Origin: Spirochaetia bacterium
GTDB taxonomy: Bacteria; Spirochaetota; Spirochaetia; SZUA-6; Bin103
Length of the DNA stretch: 64,000 nt
Direction: 5' to 3'
NCBI GenBank assembly: GCA_965198005.1
Contig: CBDAOI010000003.1
Coordinates: 864,001-928,000 of the forward strand
Made by a program: the position numbers and the translations under genes. Below are positions 31,101 through 34,861 of this stretch, piece by piece. Under the pieces are notes generated by a model. It did no database searches. It was given only the letters and a program-made list of their open reading frames with translations, and was not told the DNA's origin. How positions within the stretch are numbered: position 1 is the stretch's first letter; each line of letters opens with the position of its first letter.

Positions 31101-32906
31101 ATGAACTTTGTAAAAATTAGAATGACCTTCGCGTTTGCGTTGGTCCTCGTAATGACCGCAACCGGCCTCTGGGCCGCTGGCGCAGAAGAGGAGCCGGCAG
31201 CCGCAGCTGAAAAGAAGTATGTGACCGATCCCACCACCGGCAAGGCGGTAACCGCGCCAGAGTATGGCGGGACAATAACCTATGGCGAGGTCAGTTGGGC
31301 TGAGCATAGTGATGCCTGGTACATTACTGGCTGGGCGGCACAATCCATCGCTTTGGTTAATGAGATGCTCGGCATCGGGGACTGGGGAATAGATAGGGAC
31401 GTATGGGACTGGCGGCTCTTAGCAGACACACCTCTATGGGCCTGGAAAGGGGCACTGGCGGAAAGCTGGGAAACGCCCGACGATACGACCATTATCTTCA
31501 ACATCCGCACGGGCGTTTACTGGCACGACAAGGCACCGATGAACGGTCGGGAGCTGACTGCCAAAGATGTAGAACATCACTGGCAGCGTATGTTGGGTCT
31601 GGGCAAGTTCAGTGAAGCCGGACCTAGCCCAATGGCAACTGCCATGAAGCCAGCGAATTACGAGTCGGTAACGGCCACCGACGATTGGACAGTCGTTTTC
31701 AAGCTAAAGGAGCCAAACCTTCGCGCCCTGCCAGAACTTCTCGGCTGGCACATGGCTTTTATATACCCTCCGGAGGTCATCGAGCAACACGGCGACTATA
31801 AGGATTGGCGGAACACGGTCGGCACCGGACCCTATGAGCTGACGGAGGTGGTCGAAGGCAGCTCTAGGACCTGGACCAAGAATCCCGACTACTGGGGCTT
31901 CGACGAAAAATACCCGGAGAACCGCCTGCCCTATGTTGACAAGATAATAATGTTGTTTATGCCAGAAGGGGCAACTCGTCTGGCGGCTCTGCGCGCGGGT
32001 AAGATTGATATGCTGGGGACTGTCGGCAGCTCTCAATTAAGGTCTATCGACGAGGTAGAGAGACTCGAGCGGACCGACCCCGAAATCGAGCTGTATACGT
32101 ATAAGTTTCGGTCCGACAACGTTTTCTATCTCGTCGGTCTGGACAGACCGCCCTGGAATGACATCCGGGTGCGCCAGGCCATGCAGATGGCACTGGACCT
32201 CGAGACCGTTGTCGCTACCTACTATAAGGGTTATGGCGGTGCGACTCCGCAGGGACATATAGGCAATGATGTGCCGGGGATTGGCACGCCATTTGAGGAG
32301 TGGCCCGAAGAGGTCAAGAAAACCTATAGGTATGACCCGGCAGGGGCAGAAGCGTTGCTTGATGAGGCTGGGCTTACCCGCGGCGCGGACGGCATTAGAT
32401 ACAAGACCGGCCTGGCCTTCTTTGAACGGTACGATGTGAGCTATGCAGAACTGGCCGCGGGATACTGGCGTGAGATTGGTGTGGAGGTCGAGATAGATGT
32501 TTTCGGTACTGAGGGATCCCAGGTGGCCAACCCAGAACAGGATACCTACAGAATTATTTGGGGGGAAGGGGCCTTCAGGTATGCTCTCTACCGTATTCTG
32601 AACCAGTTTTATTCGGAATACCAGTGGAGCCGCAGTGGCGTGAAAGACCCCGAATATGACGCTCTGATTGATGCCGCCTCCGCTGCCACCTCCATCGAGG
32701 AGAAGGATAGGTTCCTGAAAGAGGCAAATATGTACGTCATAGAAAAACAATTTAGGGTATGGGGTCCTGAAACCCCACAGTTCCAGGCAACGCAGCCGTG
32801 GGTCAAAGGTTATAACGGCGAAGTGAGAGTAGGAGATGGTGAAACCCAGTCAGTCTTAGCCCGCGTCTGGATTGATAGTGAGCTGAAGGCAGCAATGGGT
32901 TATTAG
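31101..32906 (+). CDS. ABC transporter substrate-binding protein, family 5, paralog 2
   Basis: Same motif set as 22845-24659. Confidence 0.92.
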   Translation: MNFVKIRMTFAFALVLVMTATGLWAAGAEEEPAAAAEKKYVTDPTTGKAVTAPEYGGTITYGEVSWAEHSDAWYITGWAAQSIALVNEMLGIGDWGIDRDVWDWRLLADTPLWAWKGALAESWETPDDTTIIFNIRTGVYWHDKAPMNGRELTAKDVEHHWQRMLGLGKFSEAGPSPMATAMKPANYESVTATDDWTVVFKLKEPNLRALPELLGWHMAFIYPPEVIEQHGDYKDWRNTVGTGPYELTEVVEGSSRTWTKNPDYWGFDEKYPENRLPYVDKIIMLFMPEGATRLAALRAGKIDMLGTVGSSQLRSIDEVERLERTDPEIELYTYKFRSDNVFYLVGLDRPPWNDIRVRQAMQMALDLETVVATYYKGYGGATPQGHIGNDVPGIGTPFEEWPEEVKKTYRYDPAGAEALLDEAGLTRGADGIRYKTGLAFFERYDVSYAELAAGYWREIGVEVEIDVFGTEGSQVANPEQDTYRIIWGEGAFRYALYRILNQFYSEYQWSRSGVKDPEYDALIDAASAATSIEEKDRFLKEANMYVIEKQFRVWGPETPQFQATQPWVKGYNGEVRVGDGETQSVLARVWIDSELKAAMGY

Positions 32907-32913
32907 TGGGTTT

Positions 32914-33598
32914 CAGCAGCCGACAAGACTGCATTCCAGCCGGGGAAGGACCGGCCGTATCAATTACCCGGTTCGGGTACGTAGCGATGCCACAGTTCGT
33001 GTTGGGTAACCGCACGATAGCTGCGTGGTGTATAAGGCCCTGCCGCTTTGTCAGGCACAGGACTGCAAGGTGGGGGCATCCAGAGGGTCGAGCGAGCACA
33101 GGAGCCTGAACATAACGGAATGTCTGCAGCCCCGATATTTGACCCCCGGCGAAAGATGCTGTCCGGGACCTTTTGGTGTGCCGAGCACGTAAGCCCTGTT
33201 GCGAGGCCGACGCTCTTCGTGAAGAAACGGGTACATGCAGCGAAGAGACACTACGGGGGTAGGGGACCAAGCGACTGTGCAAGGAATGCAGGGACAAAGT
33301 CGGGAAGGACCATCTCCCAGCAGGGGTGTACCCGGGTAACGTGATAAGTCGCAGCGGGCATCGAGCCGGGCGTATGCGTGCCGTGCCAGCGCTTGAGCTT
33401 CGGCCCCGTCGGGAAGGTCCATCGGGTAAAGTGGGCATGGCCGCCAACCGGACTCGAGAAATTCGACCGTCCGGGATGAGAGGGGGGCTTCGCGGAAACG
33501 TGGACTATGGTGGAACTAGGATCCTGCCTCGCAATCGAAAGAGCGAGGTGGTTATGAATCTCTGCCTAAGGCTTGCGCGCGCCGCGATTCTACCCGGC
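32914..33598 (+). ncRNA. ORF-less group II intron-like RNA with variant domain V
   Basis: DV-like hairpin AACCGGACTCGAGAAATTCGACCGTCCGGGAT, then GAGAGGGGGG and a DVI ending CTACCCGGC. 5' 'CGACAAG..TTCCAGCCGGGGAAGGACCGGCC' is DI-like. No RT ORF. Confidence 0.7.
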
Positions 33599-33702
33599 CA
33601 CCCCTCTGGACTCCCCAAAACGGTGAGAGGCCAGGTTTTTTGGCAAGGGTCATGCGCACCTTAGAGAGTGCCGTGTGAGCCGGGCAAGGGGATCGTCTAA
33701 GT

Positions 33703-33785
33703 GGATTGCGGTTTTCACCGCAATGACGGGGAAAGAGGGCAACGAGATTGCCACGCCCCGATAAATCGGGGCTCGCAATGACGGG
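33703..33785. repeat. REP/RPE-like palindromic repeats
   Basis: GATTGCGG..CCGCAATGAC and GATTGCCACGCCCCGATAAATCGGGGCTCGCAATGAC hairpins. Confidence 0.6.
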
Positions 33786-33865
33786 GGACATTGTAAGAAA
33801 TTGCCGGGAAATATGATGGACGCTAGAGATTCAGTTCTAGTCCGACGAATGATGAGGAGTGTGAC

Positions 33866-34861
33866 ATGAGAGCCTATATCATCAGGCGGTTATTGCTGAT
33901 AATCCCCACCCTGTCTATATTGACCATCCTGGTCTTTCTTTCGGTCCGCTTCATCCCGGGCGATATAGTAGACGTAATGGTCAGAAGGATGGAATGGCTG
34001 GGTGGCGTAGACCGTGAAGCTCTTGAGCATATGCTGGGCTTAGACGTACCTGTGCACGTACAGTATGGACGCTGGCTAGGAGTGTTGCCGACCCCTGACT
34101 GGGTTACCGGTGAGTCCCACTTTAAAGGTCTCCTCCAGGGAACCCTTGGCGAATCACTGATGGGCGGTGGGACGGTGGAGGATAGGATATTAAATGCACT
34201 GCCGGTAACCATCGAGCTTGGTTTGTTGTCAATCGTAATCGGGCTAGTAATAGGGCTGCCAGTCGGCATCTACTCGGCGATTCGCCAGGATACGGCCGCC
34301 GACTACGTGGGGCGCACCGCGGCCGTCATCGGCATGGCAACTCCCAACTTCTGGCTGGGAACCATGGTCATGATCTTCCCGGTAATCTGGTGGGGCTGGT
34401 CGCCACCGATGAGGTGGTTTCCTTTCACCGAAGACCCGCTGGGGAATTTGGCGGTGTTGATCATTCCCAGCCTGATTCTGGGGACGGCCGCTTCTGCAGC
34501 CTCAATGCGGATGACGCGCACCATGATGCTGGAGGTGCTCAGGCAGGACTACATTAGGACTGCCTGGGCCAAGGGTCTCAAGGAGAGGGTAGTTGTTATC
34601 AGACACGCCATCAAAAATGCCCTCATCCCGGTAGTTACCCTGGTAGGCCTGCAGTTGCCTCTGCTGGTAGGTGGCTCCGTTATCATGGAGAACATATTTA
34701 ACCTGCCGGGGATGGGTCGTGTCATGCTGGATTCACTCGCTGAAAGAGACTACCCGGTGGTCTCCGGAATAAACCTGTTTTTGGCCACCGTGGTTATGGC
34801 GAACAATCTATTTATCGACCTGATTTATCCTTATTTAGACCCCAGGCTACGATACAGGTAG
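33866..34861 (+). CDS. Peptide/nickel ABC permease (DppB-like)
   Basis: 'MRAYIIRRLL', 'TPNFWLG', 'DYIRTAWAKGL', 'RDYPVV', 'LDPRLRY'. Confidence 0.92.
   Translation: MRAYIIRRLLLIIPTLSILTILVFLSVRFIPGDIVDVMVRRMEWLGGVDREALEHMLGLDVPVHVQYGRWLGVLPTPDWVTGESHFKGLLQGTLGESLMGGGTVEDRILNALPVTIELGLLSIVIGLVIGLPVGIYSAIRQDTAADYVGRTAAVIGMATPNFWLGTMVMIFPVIWWGWSPPMRWFPFTEDPLGNLAVLIIPSLILGTAASAASMRMTRTMMLEVLRQDYIRTAWAKGLKERVVVIRHAIKNALIPVVTLVGLQLPLLVGGSVIMENIFNLPGMGRVMLDSLAERDYPVVSGINLFLATVVMANNLFIDLIYPYLDPRLRYR

Follow-up and report, generated by a model that had tools for sequence, protein, structure and literature searches.

A decayed insert behind a solute-binding protein gene of a Spirochaetia bacterium is probably a deleted copy of a group II intron family lacking its own protein

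An insert of 685 nt lies between a gene for a solute-binding protein (SBP) and the first permease gene of the same operon in a Spirochaetia bacterium, and raises the question of whether it is a working structured RNA, an intron of a new kind or debris. It was studied within a stretch of 64,000 nt (assembly GCA_965198005.1, contig CBDAOI010000003.1, positions 864,001 to 928,000 of the forward strand; referred to as the window, and its genome as G000). In a program-made list, the open reading frames (ORFs) across the insert were short and mechanical, and no Rfam family reached its gathering score anywhere in the window. A first-pass annotation of the letters alone had proposed an ORF-less relative of group II introns with a rewired catalytic core, representing a distinct class and mobilised in trans. 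The reading favored here, with a probability of about 0.8, is that the insert is a dead, internally deleted copy of an ORF-less family of the group-II-D1D4-4 lineage (referred to as element X), which spread by reverse splicing with a reverse transcriptase (RT) acting in trans.

The boundaries of the insert were exact. The SBP stop codon TAG (32904-32906) is followed by the flank TGGGTTT (32907-32913), and the insert (32914-33598) starts 7 nt past the stop codon, precisely between GGGTTT and CACCCC. Among 93 SBP 3' ends recovered from the same genome, uninterrupted paralogs read TAG GGGTTT CACCCC TTGTGG..., the usual post-stop sequence being GGGTTT CACCCC TTGTGGCTGA... and then a GGGAGCTGGGAGG...CCTCCCAGCTCCC hairpin, and an element was found between GGGTTT and CACCCC in the window plus about ten other paralogs. 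The "paralog 3" used as an uninterrupted comparator in the first-pass annotation proved to be one of these 3' ends (G000:C3:927417, at about 63417 of the window). An orthologous pair was found in both states: a filled locus of another genome (L048 in G006) reads TAGGGGTTT (TGAGCAG...CTACCCGGC) CATCCCC, with the element in parentheses, while its 98.4% ortholog in G000 (C2:231056) is empty and reads TAGGGGTTTCATCCCC. The boundaries between the two alleles were base-exact, with flanking bases neither duplicated nor lost. These coordinates, the insert-less paralogs and the empty/filled pair confirmed the earlier view of a clean insertion behind the SBP stop codon.

Sequence models indicated that the derivation of the insert from a group II intron is beyond chance. 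The Rfam family RF02003 (D1D4-4), which corresponds to the 5' part of domain I (DI), was covered over its full model (positions 1-138) at 32937-33115, with 32.1 bits and an E value of 4.4e-5. Covariance model R2, for which 13 relatives but no X copies were used, gave a single match in the whole window, at 33433-33598 (80.9 bits; E 2.5e-19), which ended on the last base of the insert, 33598. One full-length D1D4-4 intron resides in the genome (G000:C2, about 156.4-158.4 kb) and scored 103.5 bits with D1D4-4 and 38.5 bits with RF00029, the Rfam model of domains V and VI (DV and DVI); it encodes a 435-aa ORF with RVT_1 and GIIM domains (RT and maturase) and no endonuclease domain. Intermediate D1D4-4 scores (50.5-55.5 bits) were obtained for copies of X2, an ORF-less family of about 874 nt that occurs in two genera (g1 and g2) of the same bacterial family, with at least six copies in this genome.

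The alignment of DV and DVI between X, X2 and the RT-encoding intron held together: the DV of the resident intron, its long DVI with GGAAACGTG and its GCGCGCC...ACCC tail aligned with 33433-33598 of the window. The resident intron and X share a long branched DVI with the same motif, the GCGCGCC tail and an unpaired A located 7 nt from the end, and probably the RF02003 family at their DI 5' region, where X scores below threshold; X2 resembles X in its overall build, in DVI, in the lower helix of DV (CCGGAC/GTCCGG) and in where its two exon-binding sites (EBS1 and EBS2) lie. Scans of 23 other genomes of the family and of 92 genomes of the order with models R1 and R2 gave strong matches in this bacterial family only (13 of 23 and 18 of 92, respectively), X itself being found in five genomes of one genus. 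Two structural assignments were rejected in the course of these alignments. The end of the RF00029 alignment was not accepted as the 3' end of the full-length intron, since alignment with X and X2 puts that end about 27 nt further on (...CGACCCCAC); CTGAG/CTCAG, considered as an extension of the X2 DV, is better taken as the 3' strand of the domain IV (DIV) stem, with mismatches in L056 and L061.

Within this conserved framework, the residues of the core and ends of X are unusual. In the sections of a review considered here, group II introns carry an AGC or CGC triad, an AY bulge, a 5' GUGYG and a 3' AY (PMC4424553). The full-length relatives, including the resident intron, have the AGC triad (paired as A-U and G.U), an AC bulge, a putative start at GTGTC... 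and a YAC end. X2 has AGC, an AU or AC bulge, a GTGCA start and a GAC end, and its DV base is also nonstandard, AA or CA facing the triad G. X has neither the AGC/CGC triad with an AY bulge nor the 5' GUGYG and 3' AY: its triad is AAC with GA opposite, its bulge is CC, its 5' end is T+GAGCA and its 3' end is GGC. In the window copy, DV consists of the lower helix CCGGAC/GTCCGG, the upper helix TCGA/TCGA and the loop GAAAT, with the triad at 33446-33448 and the CC bulge at 33467-33468. The predicted DVI helix is retained, and its unpaired A is placed 7 nt before the 3' end: a basal helix GGG (33482-84)/CCC (33593-95) and the sequence CTACCC (33590-33595), in which A33592 is unpaired between the TTCT and CCC strands. 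TATGG (33506-33510) and CCTAAG (33565-33570), a putative 11-nt GNRA receptor in the first-pass annotation, are also found in this domain, X2 relatives reading CCTACGG at that place.

These residues did not vary from copy to copy. In a table of 19 DVs, all five X sequences read C-A-A...GA-U-G, whereas all 14 X2 sequences read G-A-G...(AA or CA)-U-C; therefore, the pair flanking the triad switched from G-C to C-G, the A-U pair was kept, and G and A swapped strands. The joining segment J2/3 also differed, ...GGCGGAU in X2 versus ...GGCGCCU in X by our reading of the alignments. The X DV was identical at six distinct paralog sites in five genomes, and the termini were the same at 10 or more sites. 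Since AAC, CC, GGC and the start without GUGYG were common to every X copy examined, they are not private decay of the window copy, and they are older than the spread of X. Thirty-six of 42 predicted DV-DVI base pairs of X2 were kept in X, 30 being identical or changed on one side and six being kept by two-sided changes (including the DV upper helix and the DVI base), in a structure that was derived mostly from X2 rows and is hence biased towards X2; support from covariation was partial. The first-pass description of preserved helices with changed core residues was therefore accurate, as were the four deviations that it had listed. Its "distinct class", on the other hand, was overstated: the nearest relatives outside X have AGC, an AU or AC bulge, a GUG... 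start and an AC end. Because these relatives are canonical and one of them encodes an RT and maturase, X is better regarded, from the sequence comparison, as a derived sister of X2 and a sub-lineage of an ordinary D1D4-4-type lineage.

The comparison of copies suggested that X is an ORF-less family with a complete length of about 913 nt. Three full copies, at L029 (G005), L030 (G003) and L031 (G001), measured 913-914 nt and were nearly identical where aligned; a copy in G006 is near full length, as judged by BLAST coordinates only. All copies of X in G000 carry deletions. The window locus has its ortholog in L029 (913 nt; flanks 98.8-99.1% identical), and the window copy is about 228 nt shorter than this 99%-identical ortholog: with 212 nt plus about 23 nt missing, it does not contain six complete domains. 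Alignment to the X2 consensus fold suggested that the lost segment comprises distal domain II (DII), J2/3, domain III and the 5' part of DIV. Since the ortholog is full-length, the two deletions and a 4-nt duplication in the window copy must be very recent. Its 5' end, C+AGCAG in place of the family form T+GAGCAG, is shared by L029. Because of the loss from DII to DIV and the altered 5' end, the window copy is now a passenger sequence, dead and unable to act as a ribozyme on its own, and the idea that this very copy is an active RNA was not upheld.

Similar deletions were found elsewhere. Another G000 copy (copy A, C4:1606955) has lost internal sequence that its 99.3% ortholog in G001, a full-length copy, still has; two loci having been deleted while close orthologs are full, deletion in place must be fast and recurrent. 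By BLAST, partial copies in the genome, which matched the window copy at 79-100%, keep both ends and have lost different internal parts (5' plus 3' nt retained: 243+77, 218+30, about 60+140 and about 57+15), down to two footprints of 14 nt. The 14-nt footprint, which is the end point of this deletion series, was observed as TGAGCAGCCG+CGGC in the target hairpin of two identical SBP paralogs (G000 C3:801036 and C2:5774).

Two loops of DI may account for the choice of target. A DI loop of X2 varies with the 5' exon (loop/exon: TGCCTT/AAGGCA, TCCCCT/AGGGGA, CCTTTT/AGAAGG and TCCCCT/GGGGGA) and thus behaves as EBS1; X2 occupies several unrelated targets, each matched by its own EBS1. The homologous loop of X, AAGCCC, is complementary to GGGTTT, and perfectly so in Watson-Crick terms to GGGCTT at G000 C4:823824. 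A second loop, ATGACC (TTGACC in the window), is complementary to GGT(C/T)AT, the last two codons of the SBP gene, the stop codon being left as a spacer. AAGCCC and (A/T)TGACC are therefore putatively assigned as EBS1 and EBS2 of X. By the EBS1 register as well as by the empty site, the element begins one base before GAGCA; this base is T in most X copies, and G or C in two.

The distribution of X among SBP genes was scattered. The genome holds 120 full-length SBP_bac_5 paralogs (median amino-acid identity to the protein of the window, 49.6%), 11 of which carry X or a footprint; nine changes on the SBP tree are needed, nine of them forced by well-supported branches, in a quick FastTree analysis that gave no more than local support values. 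Over five genomes, X was counted at no fewer than 13 distinct paralog sites. Upstream flanks at distinct sites were 66-81% identical, and X was sense-oriented directly behind the SBP stop codon at all sites.

According to the mechanism proposed here, X would insert in sense into the loop of the hairpin GGGGTTT/CACCCC just behind SBP_bac_5 stop codons, its target being chosen by pairing of AAGCCC with GGGTTT and of ATGACC with GGT(C/T)AT. Insertion would most likely occur by reverse splicing and then reverse transcription, with the enzyme supplied in trans by a co-resident intron. Inserted copies would decay quickly by internal deletion, and the window copy would now be a mere passenger in the SBP-permease spacer, presumably transcribed together with the operon. 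The flank-complementary loops and the exact boundaries of the empty and filled alleles support spread by reverse splicing, and fit the earlier proposal of mobilisation in trans. The best candidate for the helper is presumably the RT and maturase of the resident G000:C2 intron. However, its identity is a guess, because X has no ORF remnant and only short DNA similarity to the full-length intron.

Several results weigh against this interpretation. The RF02003 match of the window copy was below the gathering score (49), as was that of full-length X at L030 (33.2 bits), and RF00029 gave no match in 32700-34000 even at E<=10. RF00029 missed X2 too, and a whole-genome search with this model, in which 150 of 299 candidates were scored, returned four sub-threshold matches, none of them within X. 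No RT ORF remnant was detected in X or X2 by tblastn with the protein of the resident intron (all E>0.1), and the DNA similarity of both families to the full-length intron was limited to stretches of 24-33 nt, a distant relationship in the case of X. The genome contains 32 RVT_1 matches, among them about 17 copies of an unrelated RT element of 1.9-2.2 kb (element H, see below). Six of the 42 predicted DV-DVI pairs were lost in X. The residues AAC, CC, GGC and T+GAGCA stand at positions conserved for catalysis or boundaries, and we know of no working ribozyme with the combination of core residues found in X. Lastly, a single empty/filled ortholog pair was found, and no orthologs of two further X sites of G000 (B422 and C823) were found at >=95% in five congeners, the best being 78% and 77%.

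Full-length X may be a competent intron with a remodelled active site that still splices and reverse-splices, which is the first-pass reading carried over from the window copy to the family: the A-U pair is kept, the middle triad purine lies in a purine-rich 1x2 loop with the G moved to the opposite strand, and J2/3 and both termini would have changed along with the DV base. The uniform DV patterns (five X versus 14 X2), the same DV at six paralog sites, the termini common to all copies and the six compensatory pairs, together with the change in J2/3, are in line with this, as are a spread that post-dates the changes and an empty/filled polymorphism between 98.4%-identical loci. However, substitution of the triad G abolishes group II catalysis. 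The switch from G-C to C-G is one event between two families and not repeated covariation, the structures are predictions, and all G000 copies are deleted, so that the family may be extinct here; furthermore, the triad is only AGC or CGC and the bulge only AY in the relevant part of the review (PMC4424553). We regard the remodelled site as possible, at well below even odds. Slightly lower still is our confidence in a broader, tentative proposal: X and X2 would constitute an ORF-less lineage with a rebuilt DV base that still reverse-splices into more than 12 sites, or X would borrow DV or the whole ribonucleoprotein (RNP) from X2 or full-length introns.

Movement without splicing was also considered. 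A long-inert X may have been copied between paralogous spacers by homologous recombination or gene conversion, with the gene ends as anchors; the ends of genes at the SBP/permease junction are 80-98% identical even though the proteins are only about 50% identical, and the spacers are mosaics of other shared repeats. However, over 45 nt upstream, the mutual identity of X-bearing sites (0.833; n=9) was close to that of paralogs with an empty hairpin (0.824; n=37), and in a resampling test the similarity of the X-bearing set was equalled or exceeded by 657 of 2000 random subsets; the X-bearing flanks being no more alike than empty ones, there was no sign of X moving with its flanks. The bases beside X vary by site (e.g., GGGGCTTT, GGGTTTG and GGTTTC), the 3' contexts differ, the boundaries are base-exact at every site and match the register between EBS1 and its intron-binding site (IBS1), and the sister family X2 is found at unrelated sites with matching EBS1, all of which makes conversion unlikely. 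Co-option of the insert, or of its retained ends, as a structured spacer RNA for stability or processing of the SBP mRNA or for tuning of SBP versus permease would agree with the constant sense position behind the stop codon and with the survival, in most deletion derivatives, of some 57-64 nt at the 5' end, which include a strong hairpin, and of 15-30 nt at the 3' end. But only 11 of 120 paralogs have X or a footprint, deletion end points differ in every copy, two sites keep 14 nt only, one orthologous locus is empty, and no sub-element is conserved beyond what constrained deletion would leave; this role appears even less probable than conversion. Least probable of all, and by a wide margin from even odds, is an ordinary intron that decayed individually. 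The window copy does have damage of its own, the two deletions and the 4-nt duplication, and the closest relatives outside X do have canonical residues at these places; however, AAC, CC, GGC and GAGCAG are the same in X at further paralog sites and in the copies of four other genomes. The earlier argument against random decay accordingly stands for the odd residues, which are not private and were kept with the termini across X copies in five genomes, and not for the window copy, which is deleted, damaged at its 5' end and dead.

The preferred reading, an ORF-less family spread in trans, has precedents. The closest documented system, as far as the cited sections go, is the set of ORF-less TeI3 introns of Thermosynechococcus elongatus, which are mobilised in trans by intron proteins (Mohr, Ghanem and Lambowitz 2010, PMC2882425). 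X resembles TeI3, as described in the same sections (PMC2882425), in that both are multi-copy ORF-less group II introns found beside related ORF-containing introns; in both, the EBSs match the flanks, families have diverged with different targets, and most insertions lie outside genes or at gene ends. In contrast, TeI3 keeps ORF remnants and a standard core, as described there (PMC2882425), whereas X and X2 have no ORF remnant and the core of X is nonstandard. Unlike TeI3 as described, X specialises in a single hairpin that recurs behind dozens of paralogs, and its mobility is deduced from sequence. X departs from this system in the nonconsensus residues of its DV base, bulge and termini, in having no ORF remnants, and in its specialisation on a single hairpin behind a huge paralog family; the window copy itself is ordinary debris of this variant.

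Other group II introns resemble X in single respects, according to the portions of the review used here. Shifted 5' splice sites are described for C.te.I1 of Clostridium tetani and fungal rRNA IIB1 introns (PMC4424553), and X is similar in having its 5' junction off the G, one base upstream of GAGCA; however, those introns keep GUGYG further inside and splice (PMC4424553), whereas X has GAGCA and its splicing is putative. Class C (IIC) introns also use a stem-loop at gene ends as a landmark, a terminator or attC in their case (PMC4424553). Degenerate organellar group II introns and the group III introns of Euglena resemble X in motifs that deviate from the consensus and in a presumed dependence on trans-acting factors, but these introns are described as organellar, immobile and located in essential genes (PMC4424553), whereas X is bacterial, intergenic and has evidently spread recently. 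The difference of X from IIC introns lies in its insertion inside the hairpin loop, its 6+6 nt EBS-IBS complementarity, a different Rfam DI family and a full-size DV. IIC introns have a short EBS1 and are not known to have an EBS2.

Features of the window locus are summarized below.

Table 1. Coordinates of the insert, its parts and its neighbors in the 64-kb window
Position	Strand	Feature	Basis
31101..32906	+	SBP gene, 601 aa; 5' exon context of the insert	ORF; Pfam SBP_bac_5, 219.7 bits
32898..32903	+	Putative IBS2 GGTTAT, last two sense codons (GGTCAT in many paralogs)	Complementarity to the ATGACC loop, sequence only
32908..32913	+	Putative IBS1 GGGTTT, 5' half of the small target hairpin GGGGTTT/CACCCC	Complementary to AAGCCC
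32914..33598	+	Window copy of element X, 685 nt, internally deleted, 5' end altered	Sequence, BLAST and alignments
32937..33115	+	5' part of DI, Rfam group-II-D1D4-4 match	32.1 bits, E 4.4e-5, below gathering score
33139..33144	+	Putative EBS2 loop TTGACC (other copies of X: ATGACC)	Aligned with the variable X2 loop matching X2 upstream exons
33191..33196	+	Putative EBS1 AAGCCC	Homologous to the X2 loop changing with the 5' exon, four target types
33326..33327	.	Junction of the 212-nt deletion relative to full-length X	Alignment with full copies
33367..33368	.	Junction of the second deletion, about 23-24 nt; 4-nt duplication just downstream	Alignment with L029, L030 and L031
33445..33478	+	DV homolog	Alignments A1, A2 and A3; model R2
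33482..33595	+	Long branched DVI homolog (predicted)	RNAalifold on A1; model R2
33596..33598	+	3'-terminal GGC (GAC in X2, YAC in full-length relatives)	Alignments
33599..33604	+	CACCCC, 3' strand of the target hairpin; the 3' exon begins here	SBP 3' end comparison; empty/filled pair
33599..33865	+	Rest of the spacer: multi-copy intergenic repeat modules unrelated to X	BLAST within the genome
33866..34861	+	First ABC permease gene of the operon, 331 aa	ORF; Pfam BPD_transp_1, 112 bits

Some further observations concern the relatives of X and the neighborhood of the insert. X2 copies without the 59-nt distal DVI branch (G000 C3:706742-706848, C4:2010235-2010341, C2:11070-11176, C2:11888-11994 and C4:1718022-1718126) keep DV, the basal DVI helix and the GAC end; therefore, the long branch seems dispensable or easily lost. 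In genus g2 (L055, L059, L060, L069, L041 and L044), X2 copies lie 3 nt upstream of where a second group II intron begins, the two forming a tandem at a single target, and this second intron matches Rfam D1D4-3 and D1D4-1. At L036/L073 (G022:C1, about 4097654-4097929), a full-length RT-encoding intron abuts the 3' part of a 5'-truncated X2, which starts within the 3' strand of the X2 DV; the arrangement is an intron-in-intron insertion or else a recombinant. An RT-encoding element with about 17 copies (element H) was considered as the parent of X and rejected, showing no sequence similarity. It is a repeat of 1.9-2.2 kb with copies 97-99% identical and a 538-aa RVT_1 protein, located at G000 C3:813600-817000 and about 17 other places (e.g., C4:168001-170084 and C4:1164350-1166537), and a weak D1D4-4-like match (23.6 bits) lies about 740 nt upstream of its RT domain. 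Element H was not reported by the whole-genome RF00029 search, and is probably another high-copy group II intron family.

Downstream of the insert, the rest of the spacer (33599-33865) is composed of several multi-copy modules, one of which begins with CACCCCTCTGGACTCCCCAAAACGG, and repeated ...GCGGTTTTCACCGCAATGACGGGG units are present; no Rfam gathering score was reached there. Such modules recur at G000 C1:213013-213313, C4:423166-423315, C4:689056-689213 and other places, and at other loci a further module of about 180 nt, ending in its own GGGGTTT/CACCCC hairpin, lies upstream of a module of this type. Among many paralogs, DNA identity is 80-98% over roughly 55 nt at the end of the SBP genes and roughly 50 nt at the start of the permease genes, which suggests that the SBP/permease operon junction is under concerted evolution or strong constraint.

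The consequence for annotation is modest: the 959-nt spacer between the SBP and permease genes of the window is intron debris together with other repeats, and not a regulatory RNA. For the family, these results suggest that X settled in a single hairpin behind 13 or more diverged genes, all from a family with 120 members in this genome. ORF-less introns with unusual DVs could have been overlooked, as noted in the review sections considered (PMC4424553), and X and X2 fit this description: the Rfam model of DV and DVI misses both, yet X2 has demonstrably been retargeted to several sites. Splicing by full-length X would mean that the "invariant" triad G and the GU...AY boundaries are less fixed than thought; if X is not self-splicing, it may rely on other introns for catalysis, which would bear on the origin of degenerate introns and of a common splicing machinery. 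Should X borrow its catalysis, bacteria would here have taken a step toward a splicing apparatus that is shared and acts in trans, and if either the rebuilt DV or the borrowed catalysis is true, X and X2 would represent a kind of ORF-less intron that is missed by searches based on domain V.

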